From the NCBI GenBank assembly GCA_965198895.1, contig OZ240676.1:474400-538399 (forward strand): a DNA stretch of 64,000 nucleotides, written 5' to 3'. The notes beneath the pieces are model-generated. The model was not told the origin of the DNA and ran no database searches. It worked only from the letters and a program-made list of their open reading frames with translations. The translations under genes were made by a program, and so were the position numbers. This document shows, piece after piece, positions 24,991 to 36,293 of this stretch; within the stretch, counting starts at the first letter, position 1; each line of letters begins with the position of its first letter. The stretch is from Acetobacteraceae bacterium (lineage in GTDB: Bacteria; Pseudomonadota; Alphaproteobacteria; Acetobacterales; Acetobacteraceae).

Positions 24991-25281
24991 ATGGCCGAAA
25001 TGCTCGCAAGCTTCCCCAAGGCCGGCAGTGACGACTCGCTTTGGGCCGTGATCGCCTGGATGGGCACGCAGCGCCGCATCGCCGAGGTCTACCCATCCCG
25101 CGCCCGCGCCCTCGCCGACCGCGACTGGCGGGAGCAGGAGGTCAAAGCCTATGTCCACCTCCTGCGCGGCAACGACCAACCGGTACCGCGCTACCTGGTG
25201 CAGCCGGTCCGCCGCTCCGACCTCCCCCGCCGCTGGCGCCCGCTGCCCGCCCTCGGCTTCCTCCGCGGCCAATGGATCTAG
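24991..25281 (+). CDS. Hypothetical protein, 96 aa
   Basis: Clean ORF with host-like codons and GGAG SD; no recognised motif. Confidence 0.65.
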   Translation: MAEMLASFPKAGSDDSLWAVIAWMGTQRRIAEVYPSRARALADRDWREQEVKAYVHLLRGNDQPVPRYLVQPVRRSDLPRRWRPLPALGFLRGQWI

Positions 25282-25284
25282 AAT

Positions 25285-25600
25285 GATCGATCCCGTAGGG
25301 AACCGGCCGGCCCAGATCCTTGATCAGGAAGTCATGCACACGGACCTCCTCGGGATCGCCGTGCGGGCGCCACTCCCCTCCGGCGTTCTTGAAGTCGCCC
25401 ACGAGCTTCTTCTTGGTGTCCGCCGGAATCACCGGTTGCTGCCCGGCCAGCGCACGGCTTGCGCAGGGTTCGACGTCTCGATCGGATTGCCGTTGGGCCT
25501 TGGGCAGATCGTTCGATTCCGGGGATGGCGTGCCTCGATGACTCCGCAGCCGGGCTCGCGGCTCAGCGTTGTCGGGTAGGACACGCTCGGGCTGCACCAG
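25285..25600 (-). pseudogene. ISAzo13-family transposase fragment
   Basis: QPVIPADTKKKLVGDFKNAGGEWRP.GDPEEVRVHDF..KDLG..VPYG resembles ISAzo13 VISVDTKKKELVGDFKN.G.EW...VHDF; truncated and degenerate upstream. Confidence 0.8.
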
Positions 25601-25784
25601 AGAGCAGGCCGTGTCTCACCCCAATGTTGCGACGGCAAGGCCGTAACCTCGGGAGCTTAATGCCTGAGGGCTACAGCCCATCGAAGGCCTCAGCCTGGCT
25701 CAAGAAGCTGTCGGCCTTTCCCGCGAGCGCTACGGTCGAAGATGTCTGTGCTGGCGCGATCTGCGCGAACTCCGTCACGCGGTC

Positions 25785-26057
25785 TCACTGCTGTCGCGCA
25801 GATGCCTCCACCCGAAACTGCGATCGAAGTTCGCGACGTGCCATCACCGGCGGCGTCCCGTATGACGCAGAATAGCCGTATCTAGATCGGCGCCACCTAC
25901 GGGCATCCGGCACGCCGGGTTGGATCAGGCTCAATAGCGAGAGGTTCTCGAACGGACCGTTCGTTGCCGCGAACGCCGCGGCCGCCATCAACCAGGCCCG
26001 CCCGGGTTCGAGCGGCAACAAGAAGACGCCAACCCCGAAGACGTAGCCGATGGCCAC
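25785..26057 (-). pseudogene. Probable MFS-transporter C-terminal fragment
   Basis: Hydrophobic YVFGVGVFLL...WLMAAAAFAATNGPFENLSLL stretch, then loss of a sensible frame; no N-terminus. Confidence 0.4.
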
Positions 26058-26069
26058 CGGCGCGTCGGA

Positions 26070-27095
26070 TTAGCCGCCGTTATCCGCCGGGTGGTAGTGC
26101 AGCGTCACCACGACATCCGCCGGCTGCGCGAGCGTGCCCGGCGGGAACGGCGGAAGATGAGCATTTCGAAACACCGCTAACGCCGCCGCGTCGAGCACAC
26201 TCGACCCCGAGCCTTGCACCACTTCGATCGACGTGACCTGACCGTCCGCGGCAATGACGATGCGGACTTTAACGTTGCCTCCCTCATTGGTCTGCGACGC
26301 CTCCTTCGGATAGAAGGACCTCTGGTCCCACCACTGCTTCAGCTTCCCCATCCAGGCGGCACCGTTGTTCGCAGCGCTCGCGCGGTTCGCGGCCTCCTGC
26401 CCGTTTGTCGCCGGTTCAGCCGCCCCCTCCGGGTTGACCGGAGCGCGGCCGGCCGCAGACCGCGTGGCCACGCGGCGCGGCGCCGCTGGCGGGCGTGCCT
26501 GCGGGACCCGCGCGGCTGGCAGCGGGTGCGCTTGAGCCACCGGCGGCGGGGGCGGCGGCGGCGGTACAGGCACCATTGGGGGCGGTGGCGGCACAGGCAC
26601 CGGTGGTGGTGGCGGCGTTGGTGACGGCATCTCAGCTTCCTGATCCGGTGTGGACGGCGATGGCACAGGCTCCGGCGGCTGCACAGGCACTGGCACTGGC
26701 GGCGGCGGTATCTCCACTTGCTGAACGGGCGGGGGTGGTGGCGGCACGGGGAGCGGCGGGGGCTGTACCGGCACCGGCATCGGAGGCGGCATAGGCACTG
26801 GCGGGAGCGCCGGTGTTGCTGGCGGTGTCTCGGCCTGTTGAACCGGTGGGGTGGGAGCAATCGGCGCGGTGGTTGCTTCCGTAGGGGCGGACGGCTCCGG
26901 CGACGCTGCCGGCCCTGGCTCCGCAACAACGTCCACCGAGAACGGCTCCGAGGCACTTGCTGTTGGCTGCGGCGGCGGAAGCATCAGCAAGCAAAGGAAG
27001 AACGTCAGGTGCAGCGCCAGAGAGAGCAAAACCAGCCAGCCCAGCGTTCTGGGCCGGCACACGCGCGCGGCCAAACGTTGGTCGTTGCCTAGCAT
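26070..27095 (-). CDS. tonB: TonB-family energy transducer
   Basis: N-terminal TM with SLALH (SxxxH), long Pro-rich linker, C-terminal WW..YPKEAS..EGGNVKVRIVI..DG..SGSSVLDAAAL domain. Confidence 0.88.
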   Translation of the reverse strand: MLGNDQRLAARVCRPRTLGWLVLLSLALHLTFFLCLLMLPPPQPTASASEPFSVDVVAEPGPAASPEPSAPTEATTAPIAPTPPVQQAETPPATPALPPVPMPPPMPVPVQPPPLPVPPPPPPVQQVEIPPPPVPVPVQPPEPVPSPSTPDQEAEMPSPTPPPPPVPVPPPPPMVPVPPPPPPPPVAQAHPLPAARVPQARPPAAPRRVATRSAAGRAPVNPEGAAEPATNGQEAANRASAANNGAAWMGKLKQWWDQRSFYPKEASQTNEGGNVKVRIVIAADGQVTSIEVVQGSGSSVLDAAALAVFRNAHLPPFPPGTLAQPADVVVTLHYHPADNGG

Positions 27096-27166
27096 CGATC
27101 GAAGCGGACTGCGCGGCGTTTCACCATAGGATGCATCAACTCGAAACGATGTTGAATCGAGACATC

Positions 27167-27688
27167 TCAGCGCCGGCGCGGCACTTGCGTCGTAGGCAGC
27201 GGGACCGGAACGGGCCGAACCGTCGGCGCGGCGGTTCCGGTCGTGTTGCTGCCGGGGGCCCCGTCCGTCTGCTCCACCAGCAGGGCCACCTTGTTGAAGC
27301 CGCCTTGCTTGATGGTGCCCATCACCTCGATCATGCGGCCGTACGGCACGGTCTTGTCGCCGCGCACGAAGATGCGGCGGTCGGGGTCGTTCTGCGACTG
27401 CGCCTGCAGCTTGGCCACCAGGTCGCCGAGGTCCATCCCGTCATTGCCGAGATACATCTTGCTGTCGGACGCGACGCTGACGGTGATCGGGTCCTTGTCC
27501 GGCGTGATCGGCGATGCGCTGGCCTTGGGCAGGTCCACGTTCACGCTGGAGGTCATCAGCGGCGCCGTGATCATGAAAATCACCAGCAGCACCAGCATCA
27601 CGTCCACCATGGGAGTGACGTTGATCTCGGCCAGCGGGCGATACCGCCGGCCGCGCCCGTTGCCGTTATTTCCGATCTGTATCGCCAT
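27167..27688 (-). CDS. tolR: TolR/ExbD family protein
   Basis: AEINVTPMVDVMLVLL..FMITAP, VRGDKTVPYG...VMG. Confidence 0.92.
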   Translation of the reverse strand: MAIQIGNNGNGRGRRYRPLAEINVTPMVDVMLVLLVIFMITAPLMTSSVNVDLPKASASPITPDKDPITVSVASDSKMYLGNDGMDLGDLVAKLQAQSQNDPDRRIFVRGDKTVPYGRMIEVMGTIKQGGFNKVALLVEQTDGAPGSNTTGTAAPTVRPVPVPLPTTQVPRRR

Positions 27689-27692
27689 AACG

Positions 27693-28421
27693 TTAAACCC
27701 GTTCCTCGGACTGGCGGGACAGGATGGCACCGAACTCCGTGCCAAAGCCATTCAGCCGGTCGGCGAAACGCTGCAGGTTGGTGCTGATGGCGTTGTAGGC
27801 GAGCACCGCGGGAATGGCCGCGACCAGGCCGATCGCGGTGGCGAACAATGCCTCGGCGATGCCCGGCGCCACCACGGCCAGGCTGGTGTTCTTGCTGGCG
27901 GCGATGCCGGCGAACGAGTGCATGATGCCCCAGACCGTGCCGAACAGCCCGATGAACGGCGCGGTGGAGCCGACCGAGGCCAGGAAGATCATCCAGCGTT
28001 CCATCCGCTCCATCTCGCGGCTGACGGTAACGGTCATCGCGCGGTCCACCCGGTTCTGCACGCCGCCGCGGCTCATGTCCGCGCCGGCGATACGGGCGGA
28101 GCGCCGCCATTCCCCCATCGCCGCGCCAAACACGGCCGCGAACGGGTGGACAGGCTTGGCGCCCTCCTGGTCATACAGCTCGTCCAGGCTGCCGCCGGAC
28201 CAGAACCGGTCCTCGAACGCATTGGCCTGGCGGTTGGCGCGGCGCAGGGCGGCGATCTTCTCGAAGATGATCGCCCACACCCAGACGCTGGCCAGCAGCA
28301 GCAGCACCATGACGATCTTCACGACGATGTCCGCCTGGAGGAACAGCGTCAGGATCGACAGGTCCGCGCCAGGCGGGGCTGCGCCAGCGGCCAGGTTCGT
28401 CGCATTAACCGTTTGATCCAC
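27693..28421 (-). CDS. tolQ: TolQ/ExbB (MotA family) proton channel
   Basis: FLQADIVVKIVM, LASVGSTAPFIGLFGTVWGIM, APGIAEALFATAIGL. Confidence 0.93.
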   Translation of the reverse strand: MDQTVNATNLAAGAAPPGADLSILTLFLQADIVVKIVMVLLLLASVWVWAIIFEKIAALRRANRQANAFEDRFWSGGSLDELYDQEGAKPVHPFAAVFGAAMGEWRRSARIAGADMSRGGVQNRVDRAMTVTVSREMERMERWMIFLASVGSTAPFIGLFGTVWGIMHSFAGIAASKNTSLAVVAPGIAEALFATAIGLVAAIPAVLAYNAISTNLQRFADRLNGFGTEFGAILSRQSEERV

Positions 28422-28618
28422 GCCTAACCTCCTCGAACGCGGCGTGCCACGATGCTTCTGCCGTCGGGTGTCGCACCCCTCAGGGCCGACGCAGGGGACG
28501 TGCCACGTAGCAGGTCAACCGCGCGCGCCAGAACCGCGCCGAACCCCTCGCGCACGACTTGCCTTCCGAGCCAATGATCCCGAGTTCTCCCTCCCCATCG
28601 ACCGTCCGGATCGTGCGG

Positions 28619-29557
28619 TCAGGGTGGATCGCCGGGTGGACTTACCCCGGGCGTTACCGAGATCGAACTCCATGTAATGGCGGGCACGGTTTCCGTTGCA
28701 CACGTGAAATCGACCGTTCCGCCGAGATTGAGGTCGTGATCGCTCCTGGCATCGGCATCGTAGACGACAGTGAGGTTGCCACTGAGATGATTATCGCCCT
28801 CGGGCCATACCGTATATTGAGTATATCGACTTGTTCCGCTCCTGAGATGCTCGGCTCGGCCGGTCCACTGCACCATCTTGCCGACTTCGGTCACCGGAGA
28901 GAGGACAGGAAAGCCCGCTTCATAGAATTTGATCCATGGCGTTCCATCAGGCCGGCGGAAAAAGACGGCTTCGGCCGAAGTTCGCACGCCATACCAGGGA
29001 TGGTTCCTGATCCCTTGGTGCACGACCGTTCCACTACAGGTCCGTTGCAACATCGTCTCCAGAATCGGTGACGTGACCGGATCGTTCGCTATGGTGAACG
29101 GCCTCTGGGAGGGGACCGGCTTGTAACCGGCCGCCACCGGCTGATCGTGCCGGTGCGCCAGGACATACTGCAACGTGATGTCCAGGTCGGCTTCCGCGGC
29201 GCCGTCCGGGAACGGTCGCACGAACCCTCCGGTGAACACGGCGGATCCCGCCGCGTCGATCGAACTCGAACCCGAACTCTCCACCACAGTCACGGCCCAG
29301 ATCCTGCCGTCAGGAAGGATCGCCAAGTGGAGTTTGACGGTGCCACCCTCATCGTTGTTCGACGCGTGTCTGGGATAGTAGGCGTGCACGTCCCACCATG
29401 CCTGCAACTGCCGCATCAAGTCACGGTGACCCGCGGCAACCGGCTCCTCTGGGTTAGTGATGCTGAAGTCCTGGGCCAAAGCAGGCGCGTAGCCGGCGCC
29501 CACCGGGGTCATAACACAAGCCGCGGCAAGGGCGGCTGAAGCGACAGGCAACCGCAT
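28619..29557 (-). CDS. Secreted protein: signal peptide + TonB C-terminal domain + unrecognised Cys-bracketed domain
   Basis: Leader ending PALA|Q; WWDVHAYYP..ASNNDEGGTVKL..DG..SSGSSSIDAA aligns with the neighbouring TonB; C-terminal domain shared with the BlaR1-like protein. Confidence 0.82.
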   Translation of the reverse strand: MRLPVASAALAAACVMTPVGAGYAPALAQDFSITNPEEPVAAGHRDLMRQLQAWWDVHAYYPRHASNNDEGGTVKLHLAILPDGRIWAVTVVESSGSSSIDAAGSAVFTGGFVRPFPDGAAEADLDITLQYVLAHRHDQPVAAGYKPVPSQRPFTIANDPVTSPILETMLQRTCSGTVVHQGIRNHPWYGVRTSAEAVFFRRPDGTPWIKFYEAGFPVLSPVTEVGKMVQWTGRAEHLRSGTSRYTQYTVWPEGDNHLSGNLTVVYDADARSDHDLNLGGTVDFTCATETVPAITWSSISVTPGVSPPGDPP

Positions 29558-29607
29558 CGCGTTTAATCCTGTCCGATGGGACAACACATCAGCTTTCGCC
29601 GAATATT

Positions 29608-29637
29608 TGCTACAAAACGTAGCATTACACCTTGTCA
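29608..29637. promoter_or_regulatory. Putative BlaI operator(s) upstream of the TonB_C-domain gene
   Basis: Near-perfect palindrome TGCTACA-AAA-CGTAGCA (29608-29624) followed by a weaker TTACA-CCT-TGTCA. Confidence 0.7.
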
Positions 29638-29902
29638 CACATGAGTCGAGGGGTTTCTGGAGAGTTCGCATTCTTCTACGAAAAGTGCCTGCCTCGAAGA
29701 AAACTGCCTGCCTCGAACGTCTTTTCTCGTCCCGGAGGACGCGTTCTTTCGCAAGGTCTGGGCTGGATCGCCCTACCCGGTCTGACCGCTGAGGTGGCCG
29801 GGGACGGTCATTTCGAGACTCTGCCGAACGTGCGGCCTCTTGGGCAACCTTGCCGTTTAATGAACATGCAGGGCCAAGGACGACACGGCTCGCGGAACCC
29901 CG

Positions 29903-31633
29903 TCAGCTCCTCCGATCGAACAGGTGAACGCCAGCTTCCCCACAGGTGAGATCAATCGTCCCCTCCGGGCGCTGGGTGATGCCTGTAAGGTGGTTTGCGC
30001 CCTGCGCCAGCATTTTGAACGAGGTGTTGTTGCCGGCGGTAAACTCCACCTCCTTGCCGGTGACCTCTACCGGAAGGTTCAAGGGGTCGCGCGTGCCAAA
30101 GTAGATCTTCAGCCAGGGCCTGCCATCGGCCTCACGAAAAAATCGCGCCCGCAAAATGTTGAGATACCCCCAACCGTTGCCACTCCCCGCACCACCAACC
30201 GCTCCGGGAAGATAGACGCCGTCGCAGCTCTGCTGATCGATCGCCTCGAGCAGCGATGGTTCGTTGATGGGCGGGCGAGCTTCGCGTGAGGAGGAGGAGG
30301 CGTGCCTCACTCCGCCAGCAACATCAGCAGTGCTGGAATGGTTTGCTTCGTCGACGGCGCCTGCAGTTCTTCTGGTAAGGCTCACAGTCGCGATACGCGC
30401 GCGCGCGGTTTCGTTGCTCGGTGCGTCACTGGCCCGGTTGCGCATCTGTGGAGCGCGCGCCGGCGGCAAAGGATGCGCTATGCTGGCGGTTGATTGTGCC
30501 ATGGACCGCGCTGCCAGTTGCACGCCTGGAGATTGCTGCGGTGCTGCCGGAGCCGTTAGCGGTCCGGAAACTGGCCGGGCGGGGTCCTTGAGCTGCGGCG
30601 GTGGAGAGAGGGCGCCTACGACCGGCACAGGATTGGACACGAAGCCGTCCGTGAGAGCCAGGGCGGGCCGTATCCGCCCGATTGCGATCGAGGGCGGAGA
30701 CGCACCTAGGTCGAAGTCCGGGATCGCGGCCACGAACGAGATGATCGCCGCACCAACGACGAGCACCGATCGCTGAAGCCCGTTGACCGGCGGGACTCCC
30801 AAGCTGTCCGACAGCACGCGCTCGATGCGGTAATGAAGTGTGGACGCGCGTGCCATAGCCAAGCCCCGCAGCAACGGGCCTGACCGGCGCCCCATTTCAA
30901 GCAGAACCTCGGCATAAGCGGTGCGATCGCCCGTGACCCTCATCGCATGGTCGTCGCTGGCAAGTTCGGCAAGAGCAGCCAGCCGGCGATGGAGTAACCA
31001 TGACACGGGACTGAACCAGAACATCGCTCGATTCAGCTGCGATAGCACCAGCAACGCGAAATCCCCGCGTGCAACGTGGGCGCACTCATGCGCTACGACG
31101 GCCTGGCGCATAGCGGAGGGCCAGTCTACGACGTCGGGTGGCAGTAGGATGACATTGCCGACCGTCACTGGTGCCGAGACAACCTGGCTGATCCGGATAC
31201 GAGCATTTTGCGCGGCGTCTAAATGCAGGGGCGCTGCCTTGATCAGCAAGCGGAAAGAGAGTGCGACCCCCACCGTCAGCCGCAGCATCATAAGGCTGCT
31301 CACGAGGAGATAGGCAATAATCAACCAAAATCCTATCGCGGGCAGTTTACTGGAGTCTGCGGTCGATGGAGGTGCGGATACGACTGGAGCAGCTTGTTGC
31401 TGGAGATCGGCAATGCTGCTCAGCCATGCGGTGGGATGGCTGGAACCTATGGACAATCGCAGTGGAGTGGCCCACTGGAGCGCCGGCATGGCAAGGGAAG
31501 CCGCCAGGACGACTGTCCATGTAACAAGCAGTAGTTGTGCCCGGCGGATGCGAAGCAGCCATAGGCCGAGTTGCACGATGGTCGCCAGCAGGAGGGTGCG
31601 AAGTGCTGCTTCTCCCAATATGTCCAGCATCAC
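29903..31633 (-). CDS. BlaR1/MecR1-type M56 zinc metallopeptidase sensor with Pro/Ala-rich stalk and unrecognised C-terminal domain
   Basis: N-terminal TMs, AHECAH (HExxH), FWFSPVSWLL..LAELASD, last TM, no penicillin-binding domain; translationally coupled to blaI. Confidence 0.9.
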   Translation of the reverse strand: MMLDILGEAALRTLLLATIVQLGLWLLRIRRAQLLLVTWTVVLAASLAMPALQWATPLRLSIGSSHPTAWLSSIADLQQQAAPVVSAPPSTADSSKLPAIGFWLIIAYLLVSSLMMLRLTVGVALSFRLLIKAAPLHLDAAQNARIRISQVVSAPVTVGNVILLPPDVVDWPSAMRQAVVAHECAHVARGDFALLVLSQLNRAMFWFSPVSWLLHRRLAALAELASDDHAMRVTGDRTAYAEVLLEMGRRSGPLLRGLAMARASTLHYRIERVLSDSLGVPPVNGLQRSVLVVGAAIISFVAAIPDFDLGASPPSIAIGRIRPALALTDGFVSNPVPVVGALSPPPQLKDPARPVSGPLTAPAAPQQSPGVQLAARSMAQSTASIAHPLPPARAPQMRNRASDAPSNETARARIATVSLTRRTAGAVDEANHSSTADVAGGVRHASSSSREARPPINEPSLLEAIDQQSCDGVYLPGAVGGAGSGNGWGYLNILRARFFREADGRPWLKIYFGTRDPLNLPVEVTGKEVEFTAGNNTSFKMLAQGANHLTGITQRPEGTIDLTCGEAGVHLFDRRS

Positions 31634-32007
31634 TGTTCACCTTTGGCCGCGTCGATCCGCTTGGCCAGCAGCTTCAGCACGCGTGGGTCCAGCATGCGTG
31701 CGTCGGCCATGCCGACGAGTACGTCCTCTACCGAACCGTTGCAGAACCACCCCACGATGCGCTTCACAGCCCTAGCGGCGACATCCTGCCTCGCTTCGGC
31801 GGCGCGAAAGATGTAGGTGCGGCCTTCCACCCTGTGGCCAACGTATCCTTTATCTTCGAGCCGCCGCAGCACCGTCCGGACAGTCGACTCTTTCGGTTTG
31901 CGCTTCAACTGGGACCGTACCTGGTCGGCCGTGACTTCGCCGGCATCCCAGACGATCTGCATTACCTCGAGCTCAAGCTCGCCAAGGTCAGACATAGTCT
32001 CATTCAT
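31630..32007 (-). CDS. blaI: BlaI/MecI/CopY family transcriptional repressor
   Basis: LGELELEVMQIVW, STVRTVLRRLEDKGYV, GRTYIF, FCNGSVEDVL. Confidence 0.93.
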   Translation of the reverse strand: MNETMSDLGELELEVMQIVWDAGEVTADQVRSQLKRKPKESTVRTVLRRLEDKGYVGHRVEGRTYIFRAAEARQDVAARAVKRIVGWFCNGSVEDVLVGMADARMLDPRVLKLLAKRIDAAKGEQ

Positions 32008-32025
32008 GGAGTGTAAGCCGCCAAT

Positions 32026-32053
32026 GCTACATTATGTAACGCCAGCTACAAAA
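32026..32053. promoter_or_regulatory. Putative BlaI autoregulatory operator
   Basis: GCTACA-TTA-TGTAAC (32026-32040) plus half-site GCTACAAAA (32045-32053); TACA/TGTA core as in BlaI/CopY boxes. Confidence 0.7.
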
Positions 32054-32361
32054 GGGACGCAAGCGCAGGCAGCATCAATGTCTCACGTTCCACGGAGCCA
32101 GCGGTTAAGCCGGTCGAAGATAGGATCCCCGCCCGCTTCTGGGTGTCGCACCAAAATTGCTGCGCGGCGGGTATAGGGGCGCGAGCAGCCACCACACGGA
32201 ACGGCAAGGTTTGGTGGAGGCTGTGTGGAAACTCGGTGAGCGGATAATCCGACAGGGCCGTTTAGGTCCAGCCACAGACGCAGCAGTGCTGTTCGTTTGT
32301 GGGGACAATCGTGGGATCATCTTGAAGGCCAAGACAAAACTAAGGCAAATCCAGAGAGATA

Positions 32362-32451
32362 TGGCGGACAGGGTGGGATTCGAACCCACGTTACGCGTTA
32401 ACGCAAACACGCTTTCCAAGCGTGCGCCTTCAGCCACTCGGCCACCTGTCC
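32362..32451 (-). tRNA. tRNA-Ser(GGA)
   Basis: 90 nt; GGACAGG/CCTGTCC acceptor stem, anticodon loop TTGGAAA, long variable arm, GGTTCGAATCC T-loop, encoded CCA. Confidence 0.97.
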
Positions 32452-32481
32452 AGCGCGGCGGTCTCCATAGCAAGCCCGGGG

Positions 32482-34287
32482 CTAGGCGTCCATCTTCAAG
32501 GCGGCCAGGAACGCGCTCTGCGGGATCTCGACCTTGCCGAACTGCCGCATGCGCTTCTTGCCCTCTTTCTGCTTCTCCAGCAGCTTGCGCTTACGGCTGA
32601 TGTCGCCGCCGTAGCACTTGGCGGTCACGTCCTTGCTCAGCGCGCCGATGGTCTCGCGGGCGATCACCCGGCCGCCGATCGCCGCCTGGATGGCGATCTT
32701 GAACAGCTGGCGGGGGATCAGGTCCTTCAGCTTGGCGCAGATCGCCCGGCCCCGCTGCTCGGCGGCACTGCGGTGGGCGATGAAGCTCAGCGCGTCCACC
32801 GGGTCCTGGTTCACCAGGATGGAAATGCGGACCAGGTCGCTCTCCTGGTAGTCGGCCATGGCGTAGTCGAAGCTGGCATAGCCGCGGCTGATCGACTTCA
32901 GGCGGTCGTAGAAGTCGAACACCACCTCGTTCAGCGGCAGGCGATACACCGCCATGGCGCGGTTGCCGACATAGGTCAGGTCCTGCTGCTGGCCACGGCG
33001 CTCGCTGCACAGCGTCAGCACGGAGCCGAGATACTCGTCGGGCACCATGATGGTCGCCTTGATCCAGGGCTCCTCCATGTGATCGATGTAGGTCGGATCG
33101 GGCATGTCCGCCGGGTTGTGCAGCTTCTCCACCGTGCCGTCGTTCCGGTAGATGTCGTACACCACCGAGGGCGCGGTCGCGATCAGGTCGAGGTCGAACT
33201 CGCGGCTGAGGCGCTCCTGGATGATCTCCAGGTGCAGCAGCCCCAAAAAGCCGCAGCGATAGCCGAAGCCCAGCGCCGCCGACGTCTCTGCCTCGTAGTG
33301 AAAACTGGCATCGTTCAGCCGCAGCTTGCCCAGGCTCTCGCGAAGCTTCTCGAAATCGTCGGCGTCGACCGGGAACAGGCCGCACCACACCACGGGGATG
33401 GAAGGCTTGAAGCCCGGCAGCGCCGCAGCGGCCGGGTTGCGGTCGTCGGTGACGGTATCGCCCACGTTGCAGTCGGCCACCGTCTTGATGGCGGCGGTGA
33501 TGTAGCCCATCTCGCCCGGCCCGAGGTCGTCGGTGGGGATCATCTTGGGGGTGAACACGCCGACCTGCTCCACCGGGTGGGCAGCGCCGTTGGACATCAT
33601 GCGGATCTTCATGCCGCGCTTCAGCCGCCCGTCGCGCACCCGCACCAGGATCACCACGCCCAGGTACTGGTCGTACCAGCTATCCACCAGTAGCGCGGTC
33701 AGCGGCTTGGTGGCATCACCGGTGGGCGGCGGCAGCCGGGTCACCAACGCCTCCAGCACGCCGCCGATGTTCAGCCCGGTCTTGGCGCTGATCATCACCG
33801 CGTCGTCGGCCGGGATGCCGATCACGTCCTCGATCTGCTGCTTCACCCGCTCCGGCTCGGCGGCCGGCAGGTCGATCTTGTTCAGCACGGGGACGATCTC
33901 GTGGTTGGCGTCCATCGCCTGGTAGACGTTGGCCAGCGTCTGCGCCTCCACGCCCTGGGAGGCATCCACCACCAGCAGCGAGCCTTCGCAGGCCGCCAGC
34001 GACCGGCTGACCTCGTAGGCGAAGTCCACGTGACCCGGCGTGTCCATCAGGTTCAGCTCGTAGGTCAGTCCGTCCTTGGCCTTGTAAGCCAGGCGGACGG
34101 TCTGCGCCTTGATAGTGATCCCGCGTTCTTTCTCCAGGTCCATGTTATCAAGGACTTGGGCGGTCATCTCGCGGTCGGTCAGCCCGCCGCAAGCCTGGAT
34201 CAGCCGGTCGGCCAGCGTGGATTTGCCGTGGTCGATGTGGGCGATGATGGAGAAGTTGCGGATCAAGGCGAGCGGCGTGTCGGTCAT
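32482..34287 (-). CDS. lepA: Elongation factor 4
   Basis: [53 protein letters not shown]. Confidence 0.98.
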
Positions 34288-34337: not shown

Positions 34338-36293
34338 TCACCTCACCTGCACGGAGGTCCCGTTGTTACAGAGCGAGCCGGCCGTCGCCACCGAGCAGGA
34401 CGGCACGCCGCCATAGCTCACGAAAGCGGGGGCCAACGCCGCCGTGAACGTGCCACAACCCGTGTTCAAGCCGCCCGTCCCGCTGCAACCGGTTGACGTG
34501 ACGGCGGGCGGCGATGTGTAGCCAGACCCGGGGTTGGTGACCTGGACGCTGCCGATGAACCAGCTCAGATGCGCGACGAACCCCGACCCGTTGGCCGCGG
34601 TGAAGGTAGCCGGATCCGCGGGCAGAACCGCGTACGACCCGGCGCCGCCGGCGTGGATCGCGGTCGGGTGGCCATCCGTCGCATTGACGGAGTCGATGAC
34701 CGCGTAGGCAGCGGTGCCAGCCGGCGTCAGGGTTCCGCCGGCGACGTTGAGGGCCTCGCCAGCAGTATACGAGCGGCCCGGCGACGTAACGGCCTGTGCA
34801 CCGGCCGAAGCCGTGCTCAACCCGAAGGTCGAGGGAGAAGCCGTCGCCGGTATGCCGGCGCCCGGGGGCGGTGCCAAAGTCAGGGTGGGGGGTGTCCAGA
34901 ACACGCCACCGTTGGTCGGCGTGATGCTGCCGACTCCGCCGGCGGGAGCGCCGATGGCGGTCGCCGACACGGACCCCGCGATGATCCCGGCCGCCCCGAG
35001 CGCACCGATGGAGCCCGACGCTGCGCTGAGCGCGCCCGTGGCGAGGGCAGAGCCCGTCGGGCCGGTCCCGTCATCGTTCAAGCCGATCGTGGTGTTCGCA
35101 CCCGACACCGAGACCATGGCGCCCGTGCAGGCGATCTCGTGATTGCCGGTGATCGTGCTGCCCGTCGCGGTGACCTGGATGTTCCCGGCGTAGCCGCTGC
35201 CGTGGCCGCAGTTGGTCAGGGTGTTGCCGGAAATGACGAGGCCGGTCGGGGTGCCGTAGACGGCCTGCACGAAGATGGCCGGCTGCACCTGCGAGCCATC
35301 CAGCATGTTGTCGGCCACGATGAAGCCGTTGCCGGGGGTGTTGAGGTAGATGCCGGGCATCGGTCCGCCAGGTGCCGTGACATACAGGTGGTTATTCGCG
35401 ATCGTCAGGTGCGTGAGGTTGCCGCCCGGCACCGCTTCGGCACCGATCGGGGCCCCAGCCGTGCCCGCGTAATAGATCGTATTGTTCTCGATCTGCACGT
35501 CGTCGATCGGCGTCGGGTTGTTCGCGATATCCTGGCCCGTGACCTGGATGCCCCAGGAGTTGATCGTGGGGTTGTCGGCGACCTCGGCGTAGTTGTTCAG
35601 GATGCGATGCCTGCCGCCGCCAAAGAAGTTGTCGTAGGCCGCATTGGTGACACCGTAGGCACGGTTGCCCGAAACTTCCGTATCGCTCGAGCCGATCATC
35701 GCCGTCAGGTTCGCCCCGCCGTAGATGACGCTGTTGCGGACCGAGACATGGCTCGCGAACCAGAACTGCACGGCCTTGCCGACAGCGCCGACCTGCCAGT
35801 TGGGATAGACGAAGGTGCAGCCTTCGACGCTGATGTCGTGGTCGGTCAGCACCCGAGCGGCATTCCCCGCGTTTTGCACCAGAGCCAGCGAATTGGCGTT
35901 GGGGCCGCCGGCGGTGATCGTGGCACCGTCGCACCGCATCGCCGTATTACTGTGCAAGAGGATGGCATTGTACACCGAGATGCCGTCGACGAGGTAATTT
36001 CCCCGCGTCAGCAACAGCGTGCCGCCCCCGGCCGGTATGGCAGCCGCCGCCGCGTTGATCGCCGCAGTGTCATCGGTGACGCCGTCGCCGACGGCGCCAA
36101 AATCCCGCACCGAGGGCATGTCACCCAGCTTGCTGGAGAGCTCCCGGGCGGCTGTCGCGCCCGATGGAATGATCGTTGCCGTGCCGAGGTTGGAGGGCGA
36201 CAGGCCGGGTGCTGGGCCGAGTTGGGCGTGGCCGATGACCGGCCAGACGCAAAGCGGACCAAGCAACAAGGCACGGATACAGGCATTCTTCAA
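34338..36293 (-). CDS. Secreted right-handed beta-helix protein (pectate_lyase_3/tailspike-like)
   Basis: Signal peptide; [22 protein letters not shown]; repeated I.NN/GN beta-helix turns; Gly/Thr-rich C-terminus with [11 protein letters not shown]. Confidence 0.8.

Follow-up and report, generated by a model that had tools for sequence, protein, structure and literature searches.

A BlaI- and M56-type proteolysis switch beside TonB machinery: a candidate envelope signalling module in uncultured Acetobacteraceae

A stretch of 64,000 nucleotides from an Acetobacteraceae bacterium (GenBank assembly GCA_965198895.1, contig OZ240676.1, positions 474,400 to 538,399; called the window below) carries on its minus strand a block of six genes, at 26040–32190, that looks like an undescribed kind of envelope signalling. 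The block encodes a BlaI-family repressor, an M56-family membrane protease (M56X), a secreted TonB_C protein (TBX), a TolQ–TolR motor pair and a TonB, and both M56X and TBX end in the same domain, which is called X here. Literature searches found no description of this BlaI–M56X–TBX–TolQR–TonB arrangement. The modestly favored reading is that a proteolysis switch of the BlaI/BlaR1 type has been retargeted to TonB machinery.

According to this reading, BlaI would repress both blaI–M56X and TBX when the signal is absent. A periplasmic or outer-membrane-proximal cue would be read by domain X of M56X, which we infer to be the sensor of the protease; the cue could be a small ligand held in the barrel of X, or contact with TBX or its partner. 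The cue would activate the cytoplasmic M56 protease, leading to the cleavage of BlaI and the derepression of TBX, and read-through from TBX would also raise tolQR–tonB. TBX would dock through its TonB_C domain on the TonB boxes of transporters in the outer membrane, and would use its variable X loops to bind the same class of ligand or partner as is read by M56X. Together, M56X and TBX would be the split equivalent of the M56–TonB_C fusion proteins of other phyla. The signal is presumably not a β-lactam.

Gene content of the block

The first-pass annotation, made from the sequence without database searches, had described six co-oriented minus-strand genes in the order blaI–M56X–TBX–tolQ–tolR–tonB, and the open reading frames and the Pfam and NCBIfam domain calls bear this out. 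The blaI gene (31630–32007) encodes a 125-residue winged-helix repressor of the BlaI/MecI/CopY family (Penicillinase_R, PF03965, 97 bits with a cutoff of 22.6), whose homologues are 79–92% identical across loci. The protein scores below the cutoffs of both the CopY and the BlaI equivalog models of NCBIfam. A CopY-like metal repressor was considered and rejected, as the model score is below its cutoff and the C-terminal Cys cluster is absent by eye.

The start of M56X (29903–31633; 576 residues) overlaps the stop of blaI, making the two an overlapping gene pair. The protein matches Peptidase_M56 (PF05569, 62 bits) and has four hydrophobic segments, with HECAH (residues 181–185) and ELASDD (222–227) placed between the third and fourth as in BlaR1, and with the HExxH and ExxxD motifs intact. 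The M56 protease is cytoplasmic; the Ala/Pro/Ser-rich linker that follows it (about 307–450, some 140 residues) is periplasmic and leads into domain X (about 452–576; DNA 29903–30280). About 70 full-length homologues are 36–98% identical. The match to the blaR1_generic equivalog model reaches only 26.5 bits with a cutoff of 400, the C-terminal 270 residues gave no Pfam or NCBIfam match, and neither M56X nor its family profile found a match among PDB sequences.

TBX (28619–29557) is a secreted protein of 312 residues that starts at the ATG at 29557, the start used by all its homologues. It consists of a signal peptide, a mature N-terminus reading QDFSITN, a TonB_C domain (about 45–131), a disordered linker, the X barrel (about 164–300) and a GDPP tail; in a full-length model the TonB_C fold is standard, the linker is disordered and the barrel is present. 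The TonB_C domain is 45% identical to that of the module's own TonB and by eye keeps the YP and SSG motifs. TBX has 584 relatives, and the best 120 of these are 64–76% identical and of the same length. QDFSITN (29452–29472, residues 29–35) is near-invariant in 73 homologues (0.01 bit) and is the most conserved segment. A second motif, PFT[IV][AT]ND (29081–29098, residues 154–159), stands before X and is also found in fusions of TonB with X. Both motifs resemble TonB-box strands, and AlphaFold draws residues 31–34 of TBX as a strand, with a predicted local distance difference test score (pLDDT) below 50.

A spacer of 197 nt (28422–28618) separates TBX from tolQ (27693–28421), a duplicate of the Tol–Pal tolQ (TIGR02796, 281 bits with a cutoff of 221). 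The tolR gene (27167–27688; 173 residues; TIGR02801, 135 bits with a cutoff of 127) had its start moved to 27688, the methionine of MAIQIG, by comparison with homologues, and the length of the protein matches that in loci L050 and L051. Both proteins pass the TolQ and TolR equivalog cutoffs, and the ExbB and ExbD models stay below theirs. The last gene, tonB (26070–27095; 341 residues; TonB_C, 66 bits), encodes a transmembrane segment, LVLLSLALHLTFF, with the S-x3-H pattern and a spacer that is 39% Pro over residues 46–235. The DNA of this proline-rich spacer (26545–26920) contains imperfect direct repeats of 24–27 nt and of 44 nt, which could let the spacer length vary.

Operators and transcription

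The regulatory part of the proposal starts from two palindromes. The pattern TACRNNNTGTAGC has exactly two matches in the 64 kb, at 32026–32038 before blaI and at 29609–29621 before TBX, compared with an expected count of 0.02; two matches were reached in none of 100 shuffles. The matching palindromes first noticed before blaI and before the TonB_C gene are thus the sole two in the window. The dyad before blaI, GTTACATAATGTAGC (32026–32040, minus strand), is of the BlaI operator type, lies about 20 nt before the start codon and probably overlaps the −10 element of the blaI promoter. An equivalent dyad is found at a fixed distance from the blaI start codon in 11 loci. The TBX dyad, GCTACGTTTTGTAGC (29609–29623, minus strand), overlaps the −10 element of a promoter–operator region at 29609–29649, with a −35-like TCGACT at 29644–29649 and a −10-like TAATGCT at 29621–29627, and there is a further half-match of this operator at 29626–29636.

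Promoters of the TBX paralogues have one common frame, made of a −35-like TGGACA, a spacer of about 16–17 nt, a −10-like TAATGCT and a conserved leader. A GCTAC-N5-GTAGC dyad runs from the −10 element onward in every TBX that adjoins blaI–M56X, namely in the window, L001, L003, L009 (with one mismatch), L012, L027 and L040, and a strict scan adds L031, with a site upstream of TBX. The L027 operator stands between tonB and TBX. The dyad is also present in L004 and L007, two loci whose contigs stop a short way upstream of tonB, and a looser pattern, TAC[AG]-N3-[TC]GTA, was matched between tonB and TBX in L022 and L030. The remaining TBX copies read GCTCCTGCCTGTCGC at the same positions, which is not a dyad. 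Most unlinked TBX promoters lack the operator and have the frame in common with the linked ones, which speaks for the retargeted switch. Because of these comparative operator data, control of both blaI–M56X and TBX by BlaI is supported at the level of sequence.

Transcription of TBX in nature follows from a moss metatranscriptome contig of 219 nt that is identical to 29059–29277 within the gene; no such contig spans the junction between TBX and tolQ. The leader of TBX carries an observation of its own. In loci L002–L043, about 130 nt upstream of TBX (for example L028:9871–10000), a promoter and leader region, cctGGACAtgcgtccggcacgggcCAATGCTcctgcctgtcgcctcgcttcagcggaaggctggtgttgatctaaaaa, is conserved even though the TBX proteins are 60–75% identical, which hints at further control, by another regulator or by an RNA element, of the copies that have no BlaI dyad. 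An Rfam scan of the window's own TBX leader found nothing there.

Domain X

The claim that M56X and TBX have a domain in common stood up to direct comparison. Residues 452–569 of M56X align with the C-terminal part of TBX (195–329 in that alignment's numbering) at 29% identity (E=6e-10), and two invariant Cys bracket the domain in both proteins. No Pfam model covers it. A two-sequence profile built from the window's own X domains was searched against 1.84 billion representatives and found the domain in just 75 clusters, in which X occurs only after an M56 domain, a TonB_C domain or a TonB-like anchor. Four architectures were seen: a signal peptide, TonB_C and X; M56, a linker and X; a complete TonB (anchor, proline-rich spacer and TonB_C) followed by X, as in P0272 and P0282; and X placed straight after a TonB-like anchor and its spacer, as in P0266. 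Domain X is a new domain family that is seen only on proteins reaching across the periplasm. A profile comparison showed no relation between it and DUF3471 (hhalign probability 0.4%), which is found on M56 relatives that are more distant.

The AlphaFold2 model of X has a short N-terminal helix and eight antiparallel strands (pLDDT 80.6, predicted template modeling score 0.75). Foldseek comparison of this model with the PDB returned lipocalins, avidins and designed barrels, all of them weak matches (best E 3.8e-3, TM about 0.4, 6–14% identity), and the model thus appears to be a calycin-like eight-stranded barrel with weak structural matches. Across 73 TBX sequences, variation is focused in the loops between strands 5 and 6 and between strands 7 and 8 (2.7–2.9 bits), which lie at the same end of the barrel, and the loops at the opposite end are nearly invariant (0.2–0.8 bits). 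This distribution recalls the binding sites of lipocalin-type barrels.

Conservation and gene layouts

Conservation was assessed by mapping the window's proteins onto 41 genome loci and reading the gene calls around exact-protein matches. The loci are all from uncultured metagenome-assembled genomes, mostly labeled Acetobacteraceae or Alphaproteobacteria, with one Acidisphaera and a few broader labels. The hosts of the block are uncultured Acetobacteraceae of peat and moss, and the sequencing runs that contain the window stretch are mixed metagenomes, mostly from moss.

The first-pass annotation had staked its proposal on the gene order being conserved in some other genome, and the order recurs. 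The series blaI–M56X–TBX–tolQ–tolR–tonB is present in L001/L009, L012, L047, L050/L053 and L051 and in the right-hand part of L054, and in L003 it breaks off after TBX. The block sits in at least five different flank contexts whose genes are unrelated: lepA and an aldolase gene in the window and L050, LysR and DJ-1/AraC genes in L051, a tetratricopeptide repeat/glycosyltransferase gene and a short-chain dehydrogenase gene in L001, YgjP and CxxCxxCC genes in L047, and RibD_C in L054. The extent given above for the block is set by its homology to L051, a different genomic context; this homology starts near 32190 and ends near 26050, about 20–30 nt beyond the tonB stop. No inverted or direct repeats were found at the block borders. 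Judged by gene order and flanks, the six genes travel together as a coherent conserved unit.

Other layouts rearrange the parts. L027 has blaI–M56X–tonB–TBX–TBX, in L040 blaI–M56X is divergent from tonB–TBX, in L031 blaI–M56X is divergent from TBX with tonB beyond M56X, and L041 reads tonB–TBX–tolQ–tolR. TBX also forms tandem arrays with up to four copies after one tonB, each with its own promoter (L025:10428–15337 and L022:7493–11994), and some copies appear frameshifted (in L019, L025 and L028). A tonB–TBX–TBX contig, L010, was binned as Burkholderiaceae; this label is probably a binning error rather than a sign of transfer.

Origin of the tolQR copy

The initial description of a dedicated TonB–TolQR module needs correction on one point: rather than being an ancient paralogue dedicated to the module, the tolQR pair was copied from the housekeeping Tol–Pal tolQR and has been kept nearly identical to it. 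The closest relatives of the window's TolQ (88–90% identity) lie in canonical ruvCAB–ybgC–tolQ–tolR–tolA–tolB–pal–cpoB clusters, and its TolR is 87% identical to a canonical TolR. Canonical Tol–Pal clusters were found elsewhere, in L045, L046, L048 and L052.

Closer comparisons come from loci in which the two kinds of copy match. One exact TolQ protein, P0314, is encoded both in the canonical cluster L046 and in the module of L047, and the two loci are 99.5% identical over 1221 bp, from about 50 bp before tolQ to about codon 149 of tolR, with unrelated flanks. The exact TolQ of the window is also encoded in the canonical ybgC–tolQ–tolR of L052 and in the modules of L050, L051 and L053, and L052 is 96.8% identical in DNA to window positions 27347–28449. 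Among tolQ genes, module and canonical copies of one lineage are 99.4–99.7% identical in DNA, compared with 86–91% for modules of different lineages. Module and canonical copies therefore appear to evolve in concert, by gene conversion or by repeated recopying. The direction of copying is from the Tol–Pal operon to the module, because the last 26 nt or so of the spacer (26–50 nt beside tolQ) is the tail of the ybgC coding sequence from that operon and not a promoter.

Copying from the Tol–Pal genes also accounts for the core-like GC content at third codon positions (GC3) of tolQR, which is 0.88–0.90 compared with 0.68–0.75 for blaI–M56X–TBX. From their identity, the two tolQR copies presumably reside in one genome, in assemblies that are metagenomic. 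The idea that the module holds the sole, relocated housekeeping copy was rejected, since the identical TolQ is also found in a canonical ybgC–tolQ–tolR. The conversion tract ends inside tolR (L046:7168–7254 compared with L047:7168–7194), so that module and canonical TolR (177 compared with 157 residues) differ only in a Pro/Ala-rich C-terminal tail. This tail difference might matter for the choice between TolA and TonB as partner.

An exchanged allele of the presumed sensor and adaptor genes

Locus L050 is syntenic with the window and 99–100% identical to it across lepA, the tRNA gene, tolQ, tolR, tonB and the downstream DNA. Between these regions lies a hypervariable segment (28440–32040, minus strand) that takes in the 3′ part of blaI, M56X, TBX and the spacer and is 21–85% identical to L050; at the protein level M56X is 63% identical. 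On the basis of this comparison, blaI(3′)–M56X–TBX is a replaced, divergent allele between near-identical strains. A tRNA-linked integrated island, suggested by the low GC3 beside a tRNA-Ser gene, was rejected in favor of allelic replacement because the breakpoints with L050 are not at the tRNA gene; they fall inside blaI and just before tolQ.

Locus L051 is a mosaic. Its blaI and the N-terminal part of M56 are 64–93% identical to the window, and the C-terminal half of M56X, including X, and TBX are about 100% identical. The X domain of M56X and TBX thus tend to be coinherited, which fits a cognate pair.

Alternative readings

The retargeted switch is better established on the side of TBX than on the side of the motor. 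The first-pass annotation had the switch inducing both the adaptor and the energy-transduction module; the operators uphold this for TBX, and for tolQR–tonB the argument comes only from co-orientation and short spacers, given the layouts of L027, L031 and L040. The TBX–tolQ spacer varies in length, with 197 nt in the window, 96 nt in L047 and 52 nt in L050, and no terminator-like site was found in it. The tolQR–tonB genes are probably on the same transcript as TBX.

Several observations weigh against the retargeted switch. In about 30 loci, one to four TBX genes come after a tonB, with blaI, M56 and tolQR absent within 10 kb. Most TBX genes have neither an operator nor a nearby blaI, so that TBX can function without the switch. 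In L027, L031 and L040 there is no tolQR, and the TBX operator does not cover tonB. Part of the 197-nt spacer in the window is conserved with L001 and could be a promoter of its own. Ligand binding by X is only an analogy, because the structural matches are weak (TM about 0.4), and no TonB-dependent transporter was found among the ten neighbor genes scanned in the window. Taken together, the gene layouts indicate that the core association is that of TonB with TBX; some of these loci add the BlaI/M56X switch, and some of the latter add tolQR as well.

The strongest competitor, though still unlikely, holds that blaI–M56X–TBX is a three-gene sensor and effector cassette and that tolQR–tonB has its own promoter and does no more than provide or receive TonB function, its adjacency having nothing to do with regulation. 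The exchanged allele fits this view well, as the segment replaced between near-identical strains is blaI(3′)–M56X–TBX with the spacer and ends just before tolQ; so does the GC3 difference from tolQR noted above. Operators stand before blaI and TBX only, the cassette occurs without tolQR in L027, L031 and L040, and the stretch common to the window and L001 spacers could serve the motor genes. Yet the block of six genes has moved as a whole into different flanks, and its borders there come after tonB; the spacer is just 52 nt in L050, a terminator-like site was not found after TBX and tonB adjoins the cassette in every layout seen.

A more speculative view, which we regard as improbable, is that TBX is a client and relay of the TonB motor, more than an adaptor, and that the module is a mechanical signaling circuit with force-dependent repressor cleavage. 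Two segments of TBX, QDFSITN and another motif, F[ST]I[TA]N, that precedes X, would then serve as strands like TonB boxes for the neighboring, TolQR-powered TonB to grip and pull. The pull would alter how the X barrels of M56X and TBX touch each other, and the M56 protease would be gated in this way. If true, this would also explain the function of the uncharacterized M56–TonB_C fusions.

It is slightly less probable again that TBX is a periplasmic decoy or inhibitor of TonB in a conflict system, induced through M56X and BlaI upon attack. Its TonB_C domain would capture the TonB boxes of transporters, bacteriocins or phage proteins, and the X loops would recognize diversifying antagonists. In E. 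coli, C-terminal fragments of TonB in the periplasm are known to inhibit uptake that depends on TonB, and the group B colicins have TonB boxes. A decoy would suit the multicopy nature of TBX, with up to four tandem copies in L025, as well as the allelic replacement between near-identical strains and the focusing of variation in two loops. Against it, no PADLOC defense model was matched, the only hits being weak ones of the BlaI helix-turn-helix region to Csa3/CARF-type models, the other five proteins having none; the block was found to contain no genes for toxins, immunity or mobile elements; and the cotraveling tolQR–tonB would be left unexplained.

Very little probability attaches to the idea that X is a targeting barrel for type 11 secretion (Slam) and that TBX is exported to the cell surface. 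Type 11 cargo proteins end in an eight-stranded β-barrel and are often encoded near TonB genes (bioRxiv 10.1101/2024.09.26.615229), and X is likewise a C-terminal eight-stranded barrel. However, the gene lists of L001, L002, L047, L050 and L051 hold no DUF560/Slam gene beside the block, the TbpB and hemophilin barrels are not among the 50 best PDB matches listed, and M56X and the TonB–X fusions keep this very domain attached to the inner membrane. Hardly credible, finally, is an ordinary β-lactam-sensing BlaI/BlaR1 resistance switch that lies beside Tol genes by chance: Pfam and NCBIfam do put the pair in the BlaI and BlaR1 families, but M56X has no penicillin-binding sensor domain, no β-lactamase or penicillin-binding protein (PBP) gene was found in the block or in the ten neighbor genes scanned, as the first-pass annotation had also noted for the block, the second operator would control a TonB_C protein and the gene order is kept across genomes.

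Surroundings of the block

The ten neighbor genes that were scanned belong to unrelated metabolism and regulation, and TolA, TolB, Pal and YbgC gave no match within the window. In the loci, as distinct from whole genomes, a check for transporters found no large open reading frame ending in the typical aromatic residue. The tRNA-Ser(GGA) gene (32362–32451, minus strand), which is not a breakpoint of the variable segment, lies between lepA and blaI and was all that an Rfam scan of 25000–33000 found. Between tonB and a class II aldolase gene there is about 1 kb (25080–26069; GC 0.67) with no open reading frame passing the GC3 coding filter. L050 has an IS66-family element about 150 bp downstream of tonB (L050:8500–11470; HTH_Tnp_1, TnpB_IS66 and DDE_Tnp_IS66) that the window does not have at the corresponding place (about 25925). 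Upstream of lepA, at 34338–36293, a 651-residue protein with a pectate-lyase-like N-terminal domain (PF12708) and a long C-terminal region rich in Gly, Ala, Thr and Ser is encoded, and this gene is kept in L050.

Relation to known systems

Three things make this block interesting: M56 signaling is linked to TonB, a recruited Tol motor evolves in concert with its source, and the cassette is allelic. If the retargeted switch is correct, BlaR1-type signaling would extend from antibiotic sensing in Gram-positive bacteria to the control of outer-membrane transport in Gram-negative bacteria. Two features stand as evolutionary oddities. A housekeeping Tol motor pair has apparently been copied to serve TonB and kept identical to its parent by gene conversion, and in strains with no other difference the sensor and adaptor cassette has been exchanged for a divergent allele.

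The repressor, the protease and the operators place the block in the BlaI/BlaR1 kind, and it fails the defining sensor and target features of that kind. As in BlaI/BlaR1 and MecI/MecR1 of Staphylococcus and Bacillus, a Penicillinase_R repressor gene lies beside that of a four-transmembrane HExxH M56 protease, and TACA/TGTA-type dyads overlap an autoregulated promoter and a second target promoter. Unlike BlaR1, M56X has a long linker and a calycin-like barrel in place of the extracellular penicillin-binding domain, and its sequence is too far from that of the solved BlaR1 for a search of PDB sequences to find a match. The presumed target gene encodes a secreted TonB_C protein rather than a β-lactamase or PBP2a, and the host is a Gram-negative alphaproteobacterium.

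The M56–TonB_C fusions, such as TonB1 and TonB10 of B. thetaiotaomicron and homologues in Xanthomonas, have no known function (PMC10350073). They likewise associate an M56 signal-transducing protease with a periplasmic TonB_C domain. M56X itself has no TonB_C, and here two separate polypeptides share X; the module further has a BlaI operator in front of the TonB_C gene, together with copied tolQR genes and a tonB gene. For these fusions, long listed in TonB surveys without a function, the block offers a lead in the form of a circuit made of a repressor, a protease, a TonB_C adaptor and a motor.

Like the Ton system and HasB-type paralogues, the module has a TonB with an S-x3-H anchor and a proline-rich spacer beside a motor pair of the MotA/ExbB and ExbD families. 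Unlike the ExbB–ExbD–TonB system, its motor is TolQ/TolR, with 96.8–99.7% DNA identity to the Tol–Pal genes of the same lineage, and no linked transporter gene was found among the ten neighbors scanned. In contrast to Tol–Pal, the module's tolQ–tolR is not followed by tolA–tolB–pal or preceded by a ybgC gene. Its logic may be similar to that of FecA–FecR–FecI, in which a periplasm-spanning inner-membrane protein and TonB-dependent events lead through regulated proteolysis to altered transcription; this is a functional likeness only, as the module has no extracytoplasmic function (ECF) sigma or anti-sigma factor and no transducer-type transporter, and its output would be repressor cleavage. Domain X, in turn, resembles the lipocalins, avidins and other calycins in its predicted eight-stranded up-and-down barrel, its N-terminal helix and its variation in the loops at one end, and it differs from them in that the structural matches are weak and no relation at the sequence level was found.

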